From positions 5,067-69,066 of IMG/VR virus record IMGVR_UViG_3300036398_002819: a stretch of DNA of 64,000 bases; one strand, 5' to 3'. The position numbers and the translations under genes are program-made. The notes under the pieces were generated by a model. That model was not told the origin of the DNA. It did not search any database and saw nothing but the letters and a program-made list of their open reading frames with translations. This DNA is from a virus. Positions 18,315 through 62,008 of the stretch are shown piece by piece (the first letter of the stretch is position 1; every line of letters begins with the position of its first letter).

Positions 18315-19724
18315 TCACATAAGGTTAGTAACCTTGACTCTTCTGTAGTAGGTGTTGGTGTTACGGCTAAGAGCACCTTGACCCTGAGTAATACCTTCAG
18401 CAAATGGGTTAGCAACAAGACCGTAACGGGTCTTAAAGCCAATCTTGGGCTGGAAGGTGTTCTCACCAACTGCACGTACCATCTGGAGAGGTACATATGG
18501 GCAGTAGAAAAGACCAGCATCATAAGGTGAAGAACCCTTATAACCTACAACGTAGAACTGGTTAGCAGAAACGTTTGCAGCATAAGGATCGATATAAACA
18601 CGATACTTACCTTGCAGAACACCAGCGAAGGTGTTGCCAGTGTCATCAACGTTCAGGTTAGCGTTCAGAGCAGGGGTATAATCCAGAACACCTGCCATGG
18701 TGAGTGCAGAAGCAACGTCAGCAGAGCAGAGAATCATATTACCCTTTCCTCTACGAGTTTGCTGTGCAATTGCGTTTGCATCGCGCTCGATTTGGAAGAT
18801 AAGACCCTTAAACTTCTCAACAGACCAACGACCGTTGGAGTCAACGTCGAGGTCGAAAGTACCAGAAGTAGCAACGTTTGCTTGAGCACCAGGCTTAGCA
18901 ACGTTATAGATGGTACGGATGATTTCGCGGTTGATTTCAGCAAGAATCTCAGTTGAGAGAATATTTGCTAACTCAGCCTCAGCATTCAGACCATGAATTG
19001 CCTTCAGGTCTTGTGCGAGTTCGAGTGAGTACTCAGCCTTCAGTGCGCGTGACTTAGCGGTTACGGTGACTTTCTCGATTGAGAATGCCATCTGGTTGAA
19101 ATGATCACCGCTGCCATCACCAAGGTTTTCTGCACTGTCGGTACGCATACCTTGACCTACGTTGTAGGTGGTTGCATCACCAGTTGCAGGTGCAGTACCG
19201 TCAAGAAGACCAGGATTAGTACCTTGCTGTGCAGTAGTACCCATACCAACAGTACCATTGGTGAATCCACTGGTAACATTGAATCCTGAATCTTGTCCAG
19301 AGAATGCCGAATCTACTTCGTTGTAGAATGTTTCGTTTCCACTCTGGTTGTTATAACGAGAGCGCATTGCAAAGATGAGTCCAGTAGGACCGTTCATTGG
19401 TTGAACGCCACACAGATCATAAGCGACCAGATTTGGCATTGAACGGCGGATAAGACTGATCAGAACAGGATCGAAACCTGCGGTAGGACCAGCACTGAAT
19501 CCTTGTGCGCTACCACCAAATCCAGCAGCACCAGCACTAGATGCGGTGAAGTTGGTTGGTGATTCATAAAGGAACTCGCGTGATTCGCGGAGTTCTTTTT
19601 CTTGGTTTTCGAGCAGGATAGCGGTTACAGCTCTACGATGTGAATCTTTGATTTCATCGAGTCCTGAGTAGTCCAGGATAGGTGCCCACTTCTCCTGCAA
19701 ATATTCTGCATTGAACATTTGCAT
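18315..19724 (-). CDS. gp23: Major capsid protein (T4 gp23)
   Basis: EKWAPILD, AILLENQE, GVQPMNGPTGLIFAMR, SRALKAEYSLELAQDLKAIHGL, FQPKIGFKTRYG. Confidence 0.99.
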   Translation of the reverse strand: MQMFNAEYLQEKWAPILDYSGLDEIKDSHRRAVTAILLENQEKELRESREFLYESPTNFTASSAGAAGFGGSAQGFSAGPTAGFDPVLISLIRRSMPNLVAYDLCGVQPMNGPTGLIFAMRSRYNNQSGNETFYNEVDSAFSGQDSGFNVTSGFTNGTVGMGTTAQQGTNPGLLDGTAPATGDATTYNVGQGMRTDSAENLGDGSGDHFNQMAFSIEKVTVTAKSRALKAEYSLELAQDLKAIHGLNAEAELANILSTEILAEINREIIRTIYNVAKPGAQANVATSGTFDLDVDSNGRWSVEKFKGLIFQIERDANAIAQQTRRGKGNMILCSADVASALTMAGVLDYTPALNANLNVDDTGNTFAGVLQGKYRVYIDPYAANVSANQFYVVGYKGSSPYDAGLFYCPYVPLQMVRAVGENTFQPKIGFKTRYGLVANPFAEGITQGQGALSRNTNTYYRRVKVTNLM

Positions 19725-57400: not shown

Positions 57401-58341
57401 TGAACTATTTTGCTAGAGGAAGTTGGAATAAATTCCCCAGAACTTTCACTATTACTTTCATCATATCCAATGAATATTAAAAATTTATAGTATATTTTAT
57501 TATTTCTTGTGAATATTTCTATATCTGAAATGGAACCAAAAGTTAAAGGATCATTTGATTTATAAATTTGATTTCCAAGTAAAAGAGAAGGATCTTTGTC
57601 TACTGACAAATTTTCAAGTAATAATTCTTTTCTTCTAATATGTTCTCCATCAGATGGTTTAATTAAAAAAGTTTCAAGATCAATAATACTTGGTTTTATT
57701 CCATATAAAGCATTAAATAGTATTCTAAAAGATTCTTTAGTTCCTTTTGTTTGATATAATGACTTACTATTTTTGAGAAAATTATTTACATTTAAATCTG
57801 CATCTAAACTTATTTTTGATAATTCCGGCAATAAAGTATACTTAATCTTACTATAAAATTCTTGTAAGAATAATACACTTAAATTTTTTACAGATGATCC
57901 TGTTAAATGGGAGGATGCCAAAGAAGAATCGAAAATTAATTCTTGGGCATATTGTTTAATCCCACTAAATCCACGAATACAATCAATAAAAGAATTTGAA
58001 GTTTTTTCTTTATATGTAATAATTTCGTCACCAATTTCAATTAATCCATAAGAATTTGGAAATCCTTTAGTACTTTCAACTTTTATAGTTGTACTATTTG
58101 AAGTTATATTTTCCGATAATATCGTTTTTCCATCAATTATATCTGGCGTTAAATTATCTAGTTTTAGATACTCGTCTATGTTATCTAAAATGTTTACAGA
58201 AGAACTTTGATATTCTTGAGAAATATAATACTGTTTTAAAAATTCAACAAATTTTGGATTTTCGTCCAATATGAATTCTGGAACTTGATTTTGAACAAGT
58301 TCTTGAATTTTTATCTTATTTTCAAACCCTGTCTGTATCAT
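45448..58341 (-). CDS. gp7: Giant baseplate wedge initiator (gp7-like), 4297 aa
   Basis: QVPEFI...FVEFLKQYY, LYQTKGTKESFRILFNALYG, DNDYYQNLSY...VHAIGTKNF; lies between gp6 and gp8; contains a YHYH-like segment. Confidence 0.85.
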   Translation of the reverse strand: MIQTGFENKIKIQELVQNQVPEFILDENPKFVEFLKQYYISQEYQSSSVNILDNIDEYLKLDNLTPDIIDGKTILSENITSNSTTIKVESTKGFPNSYGLIEIGDEIITYKEKTSNSFIDCIRGFSGIKQYAQELIFDSSLASSHLTGSSVKNLSVLFLQEFYSKIKYTLLPELSKISLDADLNVNNFLKNSKSLYQTKGTKESFRILFNALYGIKPSIIDLETFLIKPSDGEHIRRKELLLENLSVDKDPSLLLGNQIYKSNDPLTFGSISDIEIFTRNNKIYYKFLIFIGYDESNSESSGEFIPTSSSKIVHSILSSDNANTITLDSTINFPKSGSVYYNNNEIFYTEKSVNQLFGCYTENKTYIDLDIPKKSIIVSNDTYYGYQGGIQTEDNKLIFRLINVISGVSLQTDQKNNYPFDEGESIYVKNLGTFIENPQNNKSNKEILSNSLIYNTSCRYKLYQFDRNSNTATTLSKIEPSSLKVGDYVEFLERTTTGVVSDIKVESLSNVRIESIDVNIGRIQFNKNLLDLNSLKQYDIRRKIVFASSSLIPLKYKDITSDVTNLYSEDDDNLYVASNSLPSYEIDANIFEYFPKFLVDFNGIEKKYSSLEFDTELSIITGDRVYYNYENNPIEGLEKGYYYVKVSSDYKKIKLYISKSSIDLDKFVYIGSQSYTSIVQSEHSFTLISQQVDDKKIYPQKIFKKFELNKNQQKEIGTDIGTETIGILANGVEILSYKSKDKIYYGPLESVQIINSGENYDVINPPRFVFSSGSAKIQPVLEGSIQEILIDPQEFDIKKPINIVVTGGNGKNLVTEPVIRKRSREVFFDARILEEGGGLSIDSETVTFLTDHNFTDGQKVIYDINNINNEKIGIGPYQGSNLSTGNLLGNNTPFYVKVINSKTVRLYPTLSDFRSGINTVGFTTIGNFGIHKFKTEPKTVLDSVKVLNGGEGFTNRKLIVKQSGISTYSNTISFPNHGFSTGEVVTYEYETSPITGLSTSVQYQVLRVNNDSFRLCNIGVGGTNNTNYLRKKYEKLKSTGSGYQYFSYPKITAAVKYLQDGQELKEITATPIVRGKISDIYLYEKGSNYGSTTVNLESKPDIKILDGQNGEVTPVISGGKITSVIISYAGVNYNSVPELKIDTKSGVGARLRCEIKNGKISKVIILSSGYNYKSEDTFIRVVNTGKNVTLNPKIRSLTLNNSYKYGSQKSNYRDPSSDLLYKTKQNNLQYTVIGYFDKLKTIFGEDSAKHSKIIGWSYDGNPIYGPYGYSDPTNSSSPVKLLTSGYSSTNVENRPSTNLFPLGYFIDDYIYSNNGDLDQYNGRFCKTPDFPDGVYAYFATSILNSNTNYIGVFPYFIGLKYRSSVISENISQQFNQNYNFRNSKLLRNTLPYKSSDLYANYEFFDQSLQQICEVDSKLTGNIDSIKIVNKGEKYKVGDLLYFEGQDNSENGYGLSAYVSEIEGKKIESIQSKVKIFENAKFYSNGNDQFYVKYLPNFDIPNNAKIKISGLSTEYSSINKTHNIIFENFTTTLTQNNQYTNVGVVTDIIVRSIPSRVSIGSSIKIIGQSYNVYYTVLNCFNDLNTLRVKNTSAGLSTQGSLVTFLSDVIIGQESISKLTEPENYPRYFNPRISLGIGTYSGVITSKSFYIGTIPQNISIPTQSIYIPNHGFKTNQKVILKRPVTGAAAIQVQLNPDSSPFNLLGAGQSEETVYIISKSKDLIGIVTNPARISDTNGLYFPSDTGTNAGSDIYTYSLESTFNEVLCNVENLVSTVSISTIHNLKNDDLIEINIISNKTVGIGTNPVKLKYIDSIKSLIAKSLYFSSSDVNVSQDTLNIINHGFNEGDAVYYISTSIISGLSTDLYYVNKIDSNNIRLSETYTDSVSQPPVFVNFGSSGIGTQELHLVYPEIKVTKNDNLIFDLTDSSLEGYNLKLYYDKDFKNEFSFIKKNDNSYILSGLGTVGISTTAFYTLKYDDNLPNELYYTLEKQGANINPIDTIPNSSKISFINSSYSKKYNIFNVTNTTFDINLDKTPEKDLYLFEDCTDISYTTTSSTTDGPVSKVIITDKGNNYSDIPYYKNSSSKFGYGLYVIPESNTIGALNSIKLKNNLFEYSSDSTLLPAVYTPFRSDIENSNVLTKVNVIYGGKNYPSPPELVVIDSDSKKEIFGGLLVAQMSGKTGTSNVNSVLISIPFNGLPSNPVEIKAVNNSNGIIIDRITSSSGGIMTCLIKTPILGFIQNPFQINEDVFVDNIENVPGTGIGFNSRNHGYQFFKVIDYEQGSNPGKLVLKIPELYGNPGVAVTFQNDTFPSIVKKSNYPIFSSEQEYAIFSIGENLSVVNDDGSIVKTDLIITKSKKNHIKYIGKYKLSVGDVILGSSKGYKATIQSLNYLNSSFVTSGINEKSFGWEKETGQTSNDLQLIPDNDYYQNLSYTIKSVKTWNEISPVVNSTVHAIGTKNFADTQISSIGIVTAGISTESYVDIITSYISQSRVDVIKNFDLTKDFNIFNNKSNLIKFKNLKLIDYFESNTNRVLQIDDISGEFSSSDDDQKSLRKIISVLSPRQLCTKFRIQIKSSSINDVNQLQFTEFIAIKKKDQVYYLEKNSLSNKDTKFVDIVPSIDESRNYYIEFIPENPYDIDYEIKILKSEFSTSLPAESSKVIGSSNILNKVLNITKNTTSTILSLSSSNYSAFYSEIHIFNQNTFDTEYVELYAINDVQNVYYSDYYFNSQDAPDSYGTIGSFGLTVSNGTVSLNCLNKILDSDITVSIKTIAFNNTSNSEKYRFKSSLQLDESERSVIYDSNTIVVSSASTIVSYDRDLFSTIKSIVNVSIGNTFSLHQLALIQDSQNCNFVEYPMILSDDNIGIGTFGAKLNSDTIDINFYPEARFVGSNISIKYYNEVFYTFLDEINSTLPLDIKPLYEDLGVSKYIGLNSKSINRLNFKLYYKDDPIFAKTFNPNDSNILNSQTGTFTIPNHFFSTGEKLFYKPKSTYIGVGQSSMGIVSSVDENGISTNKLPSTVYAIKIDNDHFKVASNKQNSLSGIGVVFTNLGEGNAHMFEMEKKNEKTIITLNNLIQYPIRYSNVTHYLSGNNGQIGVANTFFTLSGISSVKPTDLLKIDNEYMKVLNVGIGTSNTGPILFYSGDKNIVEVERGFVGSSATTHSDGTPVYLYRGSYNISEDQIYFTQPPRGNVFDLVTNDERNLPRARAKFTGRVFLRQDYSTNLIFDDVSEEFTGIAQTFSLKRQGISTVGLGTTAGNGFVLINGIYQTPLTENITNYNFRIVENTTLGISSVVFSGIRDELDNITISEADVNKNQIPRGGIIVSLGSTSGLGYAPLVGANVRAVLNNNGSISGIVGIATTGSKIGFTTISYNNITGIMNVYTPSTYPLRGVNQVKLVGLGFTYSSNPGIVSYFPNDDYSFNVVGVGTTSFSIQVGTSTVSGYYVGYGTIYPWYETLSFGSGYRGQINVEVSDDAANYVHKFVSSQQDSVQEYPSGDSFTPSYAVYSPSTGILTLTIKDHGLTTSDQITIDTESIVFSCSSDNYTNQIAYPRATDPIAGIPTSIISYTENTISVGVGSMVGSGAQITATVNDGGILSFNIINGGTNYVDPIIKIPTPNYENLSIKGVSRLGIGNTTDTGIGLLMNVEVGPKDNPNNTFFNINYSKTGNIGITSTIITGINTSNLGIGNTIKIIPSVIGTGTRIKSIGIGTVYLNKSSLNSVAFTNINFDFGYYFEDNNNLVGIGTTLFQVRSFKITRPGYNFRRGDVFTPVGLVTAKGFNSPIEEFRLFVLEIYNDSFASWQFGEINLLDSIKRFQDGKRQNYPLYYNGELLSFQKNQENPDSLLIDFDSLLVIFINGILQEPKISYEFNGGSVVRFTSPPKENDLVEIYYYAGTRNQDSRRIEVNETIKIGDTVQIYSNNGNLNNTVTQNTRTVFNFPSADLMETNIYSEQGIDDQNYKPLFWIKQKEDLRINDIVYSKSRDSIEPQVYPTSKIIKDFTSTDTQLFVDDISIFNYEEEFPIEKADILIVPSYESILSGIVTAIVSSAGTIQSLSIVNPGFGYTEAPTIKISNPYYGIGVGVGTTAVLSINVNNGSLQNASVVNSGFGYTNTNPPQVLVSNPKFMTEKITGANVFEGFSGSIIGIGTTAGIGTSLAITFEIKTSNNQYTGLQTGYPIYVFDTKVGSGVTSIDSSENIKIGISTQYLDNIYYVHRIQNLNNVSRVISCNVSNETNIVGIATTGLQIGKFSWGKISGFSRSSNPVSIAISSYNVSSGLSTYPTIQRRGYGLRNTGALKKDLIT

Positions 58342-60242
58342 AATTCCCTTATTAATGTACCATTTGAGTAACTTGAAGCATAGTAATCATTGGAAAATAG
58401 TATTCCAGATGAACTTTCACCAGAAGAGATTACATCTCTAATCATATTTATTTTACTTTTTGAAATGTCTAAAGAAAGATAAAGATCCTTAAGAGCAATA
58501 ACATCATTTGATTCCGGATATGCCTGAATCTCTATTACACTATTTGGTAATTGAGTTTCTGTAATTTTTATATTGTTAAGTCTAATTTCTCCAGTTTCAT
58601 AATCAACTCTTCCTGCAGATTTAACAACAACTTCTGGAGAAACTAAGGAAGAGAAAGATAACTTTATTCCACTAAGAGTACCCATTTTTAGATCCTCGTC
58701 TGGAATATCTGTCAAATAAAGATACTCACTATCTGTAGAAATTTTAAATCCCGTTGATTTTATATTACCTCCTTCTTTTCTCACATGAAATTTATTTCCA
58801 TAACACAATTCATATTCTGCAAATTCATTTAATAATGCATTCAAATTTCTTCTAATAATAACTTTGGTTATGTTTGAAGTAATTGCTACATCAGAATTAT
58901 CAATGATATTCAATAATTTACTATATTTAAATCTTCCACCAAATTTATTTAAATCTAAAGAATCTGAATATGTTAAGAGTGAATTATTTACTTTTGTTTT
59001 TAATAACTCCACTCCAGAAGATCTATTAGGATTATAATAAATTGAGGAATCCAATTCAATATACAAAACTTTAATATCAACTATCTTTTGATTTATTCCT
59101 GCGATTGTATAATTTTTTAACTTTGATATAATTTGATTTTTATCAAATTGTGAAAGATATAATCCATTTTTTGGTTTTACTGATATTGTTATAGATCCAT
59201 ACTCTGGTGGATCCAATTCTTCACCTCCAACAACTGTTACTACTTCCGAATTTGGATAAATTAAAGTTTTTATAATAGATTCATAATCTGATGCTGTAAC
59301 AGCTCTATATTGAGATGAGTACAGTCTTGGAGCAAAATATTTAATAGAATCAACTGTTTCTATATTTGATCCATTTTTCGAAGACTGGTTAGTTGTAACT
59401 GTTATAGTATTAGAAGGTACTAGTAAATTATCATTAGAATCAAAGAGTAACCCAGCAAATGAAAATTCTGATGCACCATTACCATCTTTGCCGTCTGTTA
59501 CGATGTAGTCTACAGTAATTACAGAACCATTTTCTAATTTTTTACCAAATCTTCCGTCACCAAATAATAATTCATATTTTTCATCTTTTACTTCTTGAAT
59601 TAAAAATATTTCAGATTCTTCATCAATTGTTATAATATTATCTACAAGAGAATAATTTTTACCAATTCCAACATCACTTGAACCTTTGACGTGAACTTTA
59701 ATTGTACTACTATCTACAAAAGAATTTGGGAGTATAAATCTTTGATCAAGAGATGCATCTACATCAAAAGTGGTTCTTAAATATCTACCTTGATTTATCT
59801 CTATATTCGAAAATGATGCTACATTATTTTTTACTTTTGCCGTAATTGGTTCAGTTATTGAAAATACATAAGAAGAATCATCTACACTACCAACACAAAC
59901 TAATTCTGGTTGTAAGGTTATAGTGGGAGTATTTGAAGTGGTTTCAACATTAAATGAAACAACCGCTTTAGAACATTTTCTTGATCTTGGTACATATCCA
60001 ATATTTCTTGCAAGAGATACTACGTTTTCTCTTAGAGTCGCAGAATCTAAAAATACTTCATTTGCAAGTAAATTAGAATTAAAGGCACTAATATAGGTAT
60101 TATAGGCTAGAGTATCTATTAATACTGAAAAATTAGATCCTTCAAAATCAAAATCGGTAAAATTTGAATTTGCTCTAAGATAATCTTTTATAGAAGTCTT
60201 TATCTGATCGAAATCTAGATTTGTAAATTGCGTAAAAGGCAT
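58338..60242 (-). CDS. gp6: Baseplate wedge subunit (T4 gp6)
   Basis: LDFDQIK, FTDFDFEGSN, FLDSATLRENVVSLA, QYRAVTASDY. Confidence 0.96.
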   Translation of the reverse strand: MPFTQFTNLDFDQIKTSIKDYLRANSNFTDFDFEGSNFSVLIDTLAYNTYISAFNSNLLANEVFLDSATLRENVVSLARNIGYVPRSRKCSKAVVSFNVETTSNTPTITLQPELVCVGSVDDSSYVFSITEPITAKVKNNVASFSNIEINQGRYLRTTFDVDASLDQRFILPNSFVDSSTIKVHVKGSSDVGIGKNYSLVDNIITIDEESEIFLIQEVKDEKYELLFGDGRFGKKLENGSVITVDYIVTDGKDGNGASEFSFAGLLFDSNDNLLVPSNTITVTTNQSSKNGSNIETVDSIKYFAPRLYSSQYRAVTASDYESIIKTLIYPNSEVVTVVGGEELDPPEYGSITISVKPKNGLYLSQFDKNQIISKLKNYTIAGINQKIVDIKVLYIELDSSIYYNPNRSSGVELLKTKVNNSLLTYSDSLDLNKFGGRFKYSKLLNIIDNSDVAITSNITKVIIRRNLNALLNEFAEYELCYGNKFHVRKEGGNIKSTGFKISTDSEYLYLTDIPDEDLKMGTLSGIKLSFSSLVSPEVVVKSAGRVDYETGEIRLNNIKITETQLPNSVIEIQAYPESNDVIALKDLYLSLDISKSKINMIRDVISSGESSSGILFSNDYYASSYSNGTLIREL

Positions 60243-60243
60243 T

Positions 60244-60654
60244 TTATCTCGTTGCCTCTAAAATAAACGTAAATTCTTGAATTGGTACTTGTTGACCTAT
60301 GATATTAAAAATAACAGTTATTTCTAATGAATTATCATCAAAATTATCTTCAATCAATATTTGAACATTTTCAACTCTTGGTTCATACTCTAAAATAGAT
60401 GTTTTAATCTGTTCTTCAATAATTGCTAATACTGCATAATCAATATTTTCAAAGAGACTAGACCTTGCTTCAGATCCAAAATCGGGATTAAAAAATCTTT
60501 CAGTTGGTATAGTCTCTACAATATTACGTACTGAACGAATAATCGCTCTTTCATTTTTTAAAATAGGCAAATCTTTGGTTACAGGATGTGGTTCAAATGA
60601 TAAACTAATATCTTTAAATTCTCTGGATATCCTTGTAATTGAATTGGTTGCCAT
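60244..60654 (-). CDS. gp25: Baseplate wedge / sheath initiator (T4 gp25)
   Basis: FKDISLSF..HPVTKD, ERFFNPDFGS, YEPRV. Confidence 0.95.
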   Translation of the reverse strand: MATNSITRISREFKDISLSFEPHPVTKDLPILKNERAIIRSVRNIVETIPTERFFNPDFGSEARSSLFENIDYAVLAIIEEQIKTSILEYEPRVENVQILIEDNFDDNSLEITVIFNIIGQQVPIQEFTFILEATR

Positions 60655-60687
60655 TGAATATTAATTTTTTTCTTCAATTATTTATGG

Positions 60688-60939
60688 TTATTCCCAAGAA
60701 ATTCCATAATTAGGTTCTGTTCCATAATCCCAATCATCATAATCATTTGAATTGCGAATTTTTTTGTGCATTTCTGACTGCTCTTTTAGATAATGTTTGT
60801 TTTTTGGAACATCATCGTGCATAATTTCTTGAATTACCTTTGGTTTTTTGTTTAAACTACCATAATCAGTTGTTAATGATGTGGTTCCCCACATCTGATA
60901 CATGTAATTTTCGTCTCTATCAACTGGTAAATTTGACAT
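60688..60939 (-). CDS. Hypothetical protein
   Basis: 83-aa ORF with a good SD (AGGAG) upstream. Confidence 0.75.
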   Translation of the reverse strand: MSNLPVDRDENYMYQMWGTTSLTTDYGSLNKKPKVIQEIMHDDVPKNKHYLKEQSEMHKKIRNSNDYDDWDYGTEPNYGISWE

Positions 60940-61010
60940 TTTAGCTCCTGTTTTAATGAATAAAACAGAACTTTTATAAAGGAGGTTGCTATCTCCTTAT
61001 TTTTATTTAA
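60940..61010 (-). promoter_or_regulatory. Structured 5' leader (two stems, possible pseudoknot)
   Basis: AAGGAG-AUAGCAAC-CUCCUU-UAUAAAAGUU-CUGUUUUA-UUCAU-UAAAACAG-GAGCUAAAAUG. Confidence 0.5.
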
Positions 61011-61333
61011 CGATTTAGTTCTCTGATGTTATAATTGTCAGAATTTAGGTATTTTAAGAGTTCAAGAGCAATTAGACGAGGATTTCCATCACCACATGTA
61101 TAAACATCAATTGCAAGACATCTATTTTCAGGCCATGTATGACAAGAAACATGACTTTCTGCAAGTGCAATGACGATTGTACAACCCTGAGGAACAAAAC
61201 AATGAGAAAAAACATTCAAAATCGTCATTTTTGCACGATTTATACCACTAATCATGACATTTTGAAGAGCATTGCTATCATTGATTAGTGAATAATTAAC
61301 ATCATACACCTCTAAAAGAAGATGATTTCCCAT
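61007..61333 (-). CDS. speD: S-adenosylmethionine decarboxylase proenzyme (pyruvoyl, class 1b)
   Basis: MGNHLLLE, F.PQG.T, LAE|SH self-cleavage site, HTWPE, DVYTCG; an alternative TTG start lies at 61348. Confidence 0.9.
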   Translation of the reverse strand: MGNHLLLEVYDVNYSLINDSNALQNVMISGINRAKMTILNVFSHCFVPQGCTIVIALAESHVSCHTWPENRCLAIDVYTCGDGNPRLIALELLKYLNSDNYNIRELNR

Positions 61334-61378
61334 TGAGAACTGTTTCAATTCAGTATCGTGCAAAAAATTTATTTATTT

Positions 61379-62008
61379 CTATTTTAGATCAGTAATTTCA
61401 TATATGTAATGATCAGAAGTCTCCAATTTTCTTTTGTTTTCTACAGAATATATTGTCATATCAATTTCATATCCTGGATTTTTATCAATTCTGTTAAATG
61501 TCCAAGCATTGTCATACCAAATAATACGATTGTTTGGATATGCATAATAATTTCCAGTCTCAACCTTGAATAAATGAGCGCATTTGTGCTCTGGTGTCTC
61601 AGAAAAGTTTAAGTCTGGTATTCCTTTATTCTCCCAAGACCAATCGAGAGTGAACATATAAGTTCCGAGAACTTTTTTTCCATCTGGGCGAATTAATTCT
61701 GCTTGTAATCCAGAAAGACGTGATCTTTTTTGTACATCAATATATGGTGAAAAACAGTCCCAATACATAATGTCTTCAAGTGGTTCAATCAGAGCATCAG
61801 GTTTCCAGCAAAAAGCGTGAAGTGGCCTTCTGGTCCAATTCACGCCATTTTCAAGAAACGCCTCAAACAAAGGCACTCTTTTTTCGATACTTGCAACAGA
61901 ATGTACATCACATTTGGTTACTTCACCATGTCCTTTTTGATGATTGAAAAGAAACTCATTACGAATGTAACAAGACCAATCTGGAAGACTATGGTTTAAG
62001 TATGCCAT
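61379..62008 (-). CDS. Conserved phage hypothetical protein
   Basis: 209 aa, MAYLNHSLP, WDCFS, YMFTLDW, EHKCAH, GNYYAYPNNRI. Confidence 0.8.
   Translation of the reverse strand: MAYLNHSLPDWSCYIRNEFLFNHQKGHGEVTKCDVHSVASIEKRVPLFEAFLENGVNWTRRPLHAFCWKPDALIEPLEDIMYWDCFSPYIDVQKRSRLSGLQAELIRPDGKKVLGTYMFTLDWSWENKGIPDLNFSETPEHKCAHLFKVETGNYYAYPNNRIIWYDNAWTFNRIDKNPGYEIDMTIYSVENKRKLETSDHYIYEITDLK

Follow-up and report, generated by a model that had tools for sequence, protein, structure and literature searches.

What kind of RNA separates speD from an 83-aa open reading frame (ORF) in a cyanophage fragment, and how could it act on the gene that follows it? The window analysed here, a stretch of 64,000 nt from the 69-kb viral contig IMGVR_UViG_3300036398_002819, is a fragment of a T4-like cyanomyovirus, and Synechococcus phages are its best DNA matches. 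An earlier note on this DNA had pointed to a short stem with its loop, an A-rich linker, a GUUC and a second stem that buries the Shine-Dalgarno (SD) sequence, and all of these elements were found on the minus strand as it had described them (Table 1). The linker UAUAAAA is followed by GUUCUG, and in the predicted fold the lower part of the second hairpin pairs AGUUC with GAGCU, occluding the SD AGGAG. The minimum free energy (MFE) fold of the leader consists of the two hairpins (-17.0 kcal/mol, z = -3.61), and none of 200 shuffled sequences folded as well.

Table 1. Features of the leader and its neighbourhood, in coordinates of the 64,000-nt window of IMGVR_UViG_3300036398_002819 (minus strand unless stated).
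Feature	Position	Strand	Remark
speD	61007-61363	-	Pfam AdoMet_dc, E 1.1e-29; upstream neighbour in the window
TAAATA word	61009-61004	-	includes the speD stop TAA at 61009-61007; looks like a T4-type late promoter
Whole motif	60998-60943	-	between speD and the 83-aa ORF
P1, 5' strand AAGGAG	60998-60993	-	covaries with the 3' strand
P1 loop, AUAGCAAC	60992-60985	-	consensus AUAG-N-AAC; only the fifth base is variable
AG and AAC of the P1 loop	within 60992-60985	-	proposed 5' strand of the pseudoknot helix P2
P1, 3' strand CUCCUU	60984-60979	-	covaries with the 5' strand
A-rich linker UAUAAAA	60978-60972	-	would be L3 of the pseudoknot; last four A invariant
GUUCU	60971-60967	-	invariant; shared strand, proposed as 3' strand of P2 or 5' side of lower P3
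Second hairpin P3, AGUUCUGUUUUA / UAAAACAGGAGCU	60972-60943	-	buries the SD
Upper P3: GUUUUA, loop UUCAU, UAAAAC	60966-60950	-	covaries
SD AGGAG (60949-60945) and CU	60949-60943	-	paired with GUUCU in the predicted ground state
AUG of the 83-aa ORF	60939-60937	-	
83-aa ORF	60688-60939	-	putative regulated gene; modular family
gp25 baseplate wedge	60244-60654	-	Pfam GPW_gp25, E 1.8e-14; constant downstream neighbour
gp6	58338-60242	-	

The motif accompanies the small gene throughout its relatives. A first protein-based scan of IMG/VR, with the window protein as query, retrieved 485 relatives. From these, 80 loci were retained, and our model R1 matches 78 of them; the other two contigs end 10 nt or less from the gene. 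With a divergent homologue as query, a second scan gave 237 relatives, 80 of them kept, with 78 full R1 matches, one match cut by the contig end, and one locus with 40 nt upstream of the gene. Among the protein-selected IMG/VR loci, all 156 with enough upstream DNA contain the motif, and every locus that lacks it is short of such DNA. A pattern scan blind to the downstream gene returned at least 120 stretches. The window and loci L001-L203 together hold 202 instances, never two in one locus.

Seven isolates also carry the motif according to R1, with scores of 41-51 bits. In S-SRM01, S-SKS1, and DSL-LC02, where both stems show compensatory changes, the same element precedes homologues of the 83-aa gene, and DSL-LC03, Syn9, S-SSM4, and ACG-2014d score 41-49 bits. 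Five records were searched whole, namely S-SRM01, S-SKS1, DSL-LC02, a 96%-complete contig and the 69-kb fragment of the window itself, and four of these are complete or near-complete genomes. Each of the five has a single strong R1 match (48-51 bits), with the next best at 17.5 bits or less. The Syn9 core retrieved 24 cyanophage records by blastn at E<=0.01, nearly all of which leave it unannotated.

Identity to the window across relatives is 0.83-0.92 for the leader vs 0.58-0.87 for the flanking coding DNA. The loop AUAG-N-AAC and AAAAGUUCU are constant in 90 of 90 unique cores, and the second set shows no exception among its 78 full matches. The fifth base of the loop is C in 75 of the unique cores, U in nine, G in four, and A in two, and about 17 bases of the core never change. 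Tails with insertions were sought in a metagenome scan that returned 110 loci, of which only L388, L416, and L434 hold the true motif. Their tail reads GUUCCU, the sole change seen in GUUCU, and P3 is shifted so that CCU pairs with AGG of the SD. About 47 metagenome contigs of L352-L461 (e.g., L382) have in common a different repeat, highly similar from contig to contig and containing GATAGCAACC...AAAAGTTTCT, which is not the cyanophage motif; one contig of this group has two tandem copies.

The search with Infernal against Rfam that the earlier note had recommended assigned the leader to no family of Rfam 15: at gathering scores there was no match in the window nor in nine diverse relatives, and at E<=10 the PreQ1, SAM-II/V, and glutamine motifs were all absent from searches with 106 nt and 351 nt of sequence, in which GP20-b (RF03003) gave the only suggestive match. 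A literature search confined to the texts of papers found no description of the motif; about 8,500 candidate RNAs are reported in PMC10690425. In four RNA-library runs, contigs of relatives (85-95% alike) bridge the end of speD, the motif and the start of the gene, without giving ends or strand. The motif is a widespread and apparently undescribed leader element of T4-like cyanophages.

Both hairpins have left a record of compensatory change. Alignment A1 comprises the 90 unique cores, and alignment A2 comprises 121 of the 125 leaders of class A, the platform class that includes the window; L096, L117, L149, and L193 were excluded beforehand for their atypical platforms. In A1, pair 5-20 of P1 is AU in 36 cores, GC in 33, and CG in 18, and pair 7-18 is GC in 48, AU in 41, and UA in one, while all 90 cores retain the closing pair G8-C17. 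In A2, pair 39-57 of upper P3 is divided between UA (61) and AU (60), pair 38-58 is GC in 116 leaders and AU in five, and the top pair, 42-54, occurs in four pair types. The covariation score was 0.219 in A1, vs 0.084 when shuffled, and 0.244 in A2, vs 0.097; in each alignment none of 500 shuffles reached the observed score, and slid registers scored far lower. RNAalifold recovers P1 and P3 unguided. For ACG-2014d a stable second hairpin is not predicted (z = +0.58). The earlier note had considered that conservation and covariation in relatives might be lacking. Instead, the motif stands at 156 of 156 usable loci and both helices covary, as the orthologous leaders show for P1 and upper P3, and this makes the fold more than chance.

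The lower, SD-occluding part of P3 behaves differently. Its pairs are formed in 88% of cases in A2, with zero compensation, and its 5' side GUUC is invariant. Therefore, something besides pairing with the SD must fix GUUCU, and the P1 loop is the candidate partner. Loop AG-AAC could form five pairs with GUUCU, leaving the fifth loop base bulged. The earlier note had proposed that GUU pairs with the loop AAC or extends the second stem; both pairings are indeed possible, but within the single sequence the loop-tail match as such does not exceed chance expectation. This complementarity (AAC/GUU, extendable to AG-AAC/GUUCU) yields a duplex of -0.7 kcal/mol, which 2799 of 5000 shuffles equalled. 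All five pairs of P2 are invariant in A1, so that covariation is silent on the pseudoknot.

More informative are loci with an extra U in the tail. A scan with the pattern GUUUCU matched 20 stretches, seven of which are real motif loci, from at least two lineages. In all seven the variable loop base N is a purine (A in four, G in three), as compared with ~12 of 118 unique cores without the insertion, and the probability of such a pattern by chance is very roughly 0.01. With insertion and purine together, the bulge becomes a sixth pair and the duplex goes from -0.7 to about -5 kcal/mol. This indel pattern supports the pseudoknot register. The tail GUUCCU of L388, L416, and L434 breaks the terminal A-U pair of P2 without compensation. 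As a test of pseudoknot geometry, linker length was compared with P1 length; the two are only weakly correlated (rho 0.22, p 0.03), a relation confounded by shared ancestry and opportunistic A-U pairs. In our judgement the pseudoknot is likely, though inferred.

How the core is connected to the ribosome-binding region differs between lineages. Among 150 unique leaders, 125 were sorted into class A, 15 into class B, and ten into class C. In class A, the SD directly follows P3 and pairs with GUUC, and over 121 sequences the predicted probability that the SD is unpaired goes up from 0.22 to 0.58 once the pseudoknot bases are blocked. In class B, the SD is placed inside the loop of P3, whose 3' strand adjoins the AUG, and blocking the same bases shifts the predicted access little, from 0.36 to 0.45. 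Class C leaders have a short hairpin after GUUCUG, and their SD region shows complementarity to the P1 3' strand together with the linker. All eight class C leaders that were folded have an MFE structure (-13.8 to -24.3 kcal/mol) without P1, in which the P1 3' strand and the linker sequester the SD; with P1 enforced, the energies are -9.7 to -16.0 kcal/mol. The SD word of this class covaries with the P1 sequence (AGAGAG, GGAGG, GGAGGG, GAGGGG). A similar long-range alternative pairing is predicted for the leader of gp98 in Syn9. At least three distinct SD-occluding platforms are thus attached to one core, and in all designs the folded core is predicted to compete with a closed ribosome site, the closed state being the more stable one.

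The constant companion of the motif is the gene downstream. All 202 instances in the window and L001-L203 precede one family of small proteins (iterated hmmsearch, same set), and a gp25 homologue lies further downstream in 189 of 190 loci. The upstream gene is variable: among 180 loci it is speD in 86, a homologue of a 209-aa ORF in 38, and another gene or none in 56. With a varying upstream gene and a constant downstream family, the adjacency to speD is incidental. The suggestion, made from this adjacency, that SAM, dcSAM or polyamines might be the ligand loses its ground, as the motif tracks the downstream gene. The 209-aa ORF itself (61379-62008, minus strand) matches PHROG 3704 'ferredoxin' (E 1.5e-51) and no Pfam family, and GenBank labels its homologues 'PurM' or methyltransferase neighbours. 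Because these labels conflict and Pfam is blank, its annotation looks unreliable.

Of 157 unique contexts, 91 have a TAAATA word whose end lies 8-12 nt ahead of the loop; by the T4 late-promoter rule, transcripts would then begin at the foot of P1. The motif contains the stop codon of the upstream ORF in some lineages, as UAG in the loop (11 contexts) or UAA in the linker (four). In DSL-LC03 a terminator-like hairpin and AATAAATA lie upstream of the motif. A (T/C)ATAAATA word, again similar to a T4-type late promoter, separates the small gene from gp25 both in the window (60655-60687, minus strand) and in the isolates L001, L002, L003, and L210, which suggests that gp25 probably has a late start of its own.

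The downstream product is modular. It combines an N module (PVDR..YM..MWGT..L.TDY) with a C1 module, IRNDEDYDDWEYGTEP, or a C2 module, DR.SRPCGG.GGFDDYVERWH. The forms found are N+C1, N+C2, C1-only, and N-only, with no module common to all members, which renders autoregulation by the product unlikely. For the 83-aa protein no Pfam family was found, PHROGs gave only a weak match, to a family of unknown function, and the Atlas gave viral hypothetical proteins only. Its AlphaFold model (pLDDT 65.8, pTM 0.25) is too poor for a fold search. S-WAM1 has a 45-aa C1-only relative (L209 1195-1332), away from gp25 and without the motif. In S-SKS1 the homologue of the small gene (L002 1562-1740) is unannotated and is matched by tblastn in two pieces, perhaps because an A run carries a frameshift or because the gene is shorter there.

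The explanation that we favour, and hold to be somewhat more probable than all others together, is that the leader works as a bistable translational switch whose ON state is the pseudoknot and whose setting depends on a ligand or a protein. An RNA of ~65 nt at the 5' end would control translation initiation of the small gene before gp25 through two mutually exclusive folds. In the OFF fold, the ground state by nearest-neighbour energies, the invariant GUUCU would be paired with the ribosome-binding region, joined in some lineages by the P1 3' strand and the linker. In the ON fold, GUUCU would instead pair with loop AG-AAC, giving an H-type pseudoknot that stacks on P1; the A-rich linker would run along P1, and the SD would be freed. 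The folded core would be read by a trans-acting factor, either a small molecule or a protein other than the product of the gene. Such a factor seems most likely given the ~17 invariant core bases, the covarying helices and the varied platforms. A conserved sensor combined with varied platforms is how riboswitches are built and is typical of the validated ones. A point against the favoured explanation is that a metabolite riboswitch would not usually be tied to a single gene family and occur once in each genome.

The compact phage ON switch of the earlier note thus stands in part. A conserved cis-acting RNA is present and has an ON-type anatomy, with GUUCU able to pair with either the loop or the SD; between a ligand, a protein and no effector at all, the sequence does not decide, and a core recognised by a protein would look identical to a riboswitch-type core. 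A narrower version, in which the leader is a new and seemingly virus-confined riboswitch class, is possible but tentative. Here a metabolite of host or phage would lock the AG-AAC:GUUCU pseudoknot in a minimal fold like that of preQ1-I, and a guanine-like or other small ligand may sit beside the invariant AU, the A-tract or the bulge. If this version were true, a late gene beside the baseplate cluster would be switched ON, and cyanophages such as Syn9 would read the metabolic state of the host late in infection.

Few regulatory RNAs of cyanophages are known, and this one is absent from Rfam 15. Of the non-coding stretches beside the baseplate genes in T4-like cyanophages it is among the most conserved, and many viruses carry it, with hosts among both marine and freshwater cyanobacteria. 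Its occurrence in hundreds of environmental contigs and also in laboratory phages (Syn9, S-SSM4) makes it directly testable. A ligand, if there is one, would make the leader a virus-borne sensor of host state, and a binding protein would add a new layer of late-gene control; either outcome would be a starting point for understanding a small protein that is widespread but has no known function. Among the cyanophage regulatory RNAs, the S-CREM1 paper names CfrI, PhotoRC-II, wcaG, manA, and the glutamine riboswitch (PMC9964418).

Several other explanations can be set against the switch. A phage or host protein could read the 8-nt loop and a single-stranded AAAAGUUCUG directly, with no pseudoknot involved, and thereby repress or activate the gene; we consider such an operator unlikely, but a serious contender. 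It would account for a stem that covaries freely between an invariant loop and an invariant 3' flank, for the single copy bound to one gene in the five searched records, and for a P2 helix that is weak and statistically unsupported in the single sequence. The operator of the T4 DNA polymerase is built in this way, as a hairpin with a specific 8-nt loop and flanking bases. However, the classic autogenous version is improbable for a product without a common module, and the purine N that goes with the extra U in seven of seven loci fits pairing and not two separate single-stranded sites. Still less probable, in our judgement, is a leader without any effector, whose hairpins tune mRNA stability or basal translation, or which works via folding kinetics or the ribosomes of the upstream ORF. 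The position of TAAATA, from which P1 may cap the late mRNA protectively, and the upstream ORFs that end inside the motif in some lineages would suit such a leader. Yet a stabilising hairpin needs neither an invariant loop nor GUUCU nor the A's across phages whose proteins are ~40% identical, and the relation to the upstream ORF is inconstant.

Cleavage of the AU-rich strand between the hairpins by host RNase E, that is, a processing or decay site, is very unlikely. Cyanophages do exploit host RNase E and the layout (hairpin, UAUAAAAG, hairpin) would suit it, but the invariant loop and the fixed GUUCU would be left unexplained. A canonical preQ1-I riboswitch is barely plausible. The leader does show four features of that family: its P1 is closed by a G-C pair, AC precedes the P1 3' strand, the first segment of the loop contains a U, and L3 is rich in A. 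Against it, the preQ1-I covariance model gave no match in 106 nt or 351 nt of sequence, neither at the gathering score nor at E<=10, and the gene downstream, of the same small family in 202 of 202 instances, is unrelated to queuosine, with QueC in none of five motif-bearing genomes. The least credible reading, to which we give almost no weight, is that P1 is a mere terminator, of speD on the minus strand or antisense on the plus strand, and that the rest is chance. A scan of the plus strand does call an intrinsic-terminator-like site at 60979-60998, where the P1 complement is followed by ATTTTTATTT, yet no gene on the plus strand reads into this site. The scan calls zero terminators on the minus strand, where P1 is trailed by UAUAAAAG, with A's in place of U's. 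The A-rich stretch before P1 is not kept in other lineages, and the motif stands behind several different upstream genes while being conserved jointly with its downstream parts. The earlier note had itself raised the doubt that the first stem might be only a terminator or a processing site, and for the terminator this pattern of conservation contradicts it.

Among known systems, the leader shares with the operators of T4 genes 32 and 43 that it is a leader structure of a T4-like phage with (here proposed) translational control, and with the gene 43 operator also the stem of free sequence, the specific 8-nt loop and the 3' flanking bases. The T4 operators, a pseudoknot for gene 32 and a hairpin with an 8-nt loop for gene 43, are autogenous and repressing. 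In contrast, the design of our leader suggests activation, its product has no constant module, and the gene is neither 32 nor 43. The kinship with the gene 32 operator that had been proposed for this locus is not borne out, since neither the gene, which here encodes an 83-aa protein of variable modules, nor the layout agrees. The glutamine-II or Downstream-peptide motif (RF01704) occurs in cyanobacteria and cyanophages before small ORFs and is an ON switch that depends on a pseudoknot. Unlike it, the leader has different conserved bases and found no Rfam match at E<=10.

GP20-b (RF03003) resembles the leader in being a phage cis-regulatory candidate before a gene of a late structural module. 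Its 3' hairpin and tail (GGuG-AagGCaAC-CaCC-UAAAAAAG) are similar to P1, loop, and linker. However, its first hairpin (model positions 8-27) is unmatched in the leader, whereas true members align end to end, and its tail continues as GC(c)UA vs GUUCUG. The leader scores 13.0 bits against a cut-off of 36.2 (E 1.3-4.5) and its relatives 12.5-13.6 bits. Membership was rejected on account of the insignificant score, the absent 5' hairpin and the different gene context. No GP20-b above the cut-off was found in five cyanophage genomes, and a second weak match in the window (19158-19203) lies in coding DNA and was dismissed as chance. The pattern GCAACCNCCTAAAAAAG matched 41 stretches, most of which look by eye like other, apparently coding, sequence; the three run against Rfam, L228, L240, and L244, are true GP20-b. 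In other phages (e.g., L228), a PF06810 scaffold gene lies downstream of true GP20-b RNAs (48 bits), in contrast to the gene behind our leader, which has no Pfam family. In the three true GP20-b (L228 5413-5474, L240, and L244), the loop GGC might pair with the tail GCC in a small pseudoknot; AAC would then stay unpaired ahead of the P1 3' strand, which recalls preQ1-I type II. The main text of Weinberg 2017 does not mention GP20-b.

Somewhat similar in its way of working is the preQ1-I riboswitch (RF00522). According to PMC11625349, its hallmarks include an H-type pseudoknot with a G-C floor, in which L1 has a U, L3 is A-rich, and the P1 3' strand is preceded by AC or UC, whose C recognises the ligand. 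The earlier note had invoked this architecture, and taken as membership the likeness fails, as there is neither an Rfam match at E<=10 nor a queuosine gene downstream. The anatomy differs as well. The loop of the leader is shorter, with 8 nt, and the proposed P2 uses AAC, so that a G of the RNA itself would occupy the place of the ligand. The invariant AAC followed by C-N-C-C is accordingly a likeness in sequence only, in which the would-be specificity C pairs with that G in the best register. The SD is not part of the tail but lies ~20 nt downstream in a separate hairpin, and the pseudoknot should turn translation ON, not OFF. What the two have in common is a short P1 with an invariant G-C closing pair and an A-rich L3, placed where it would control translation, and the leader is a candidate for a similarly tiny H-type pseudoknot. 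The leader is not a member of preQ1-I, but it would work somewhat like a fold of that class.
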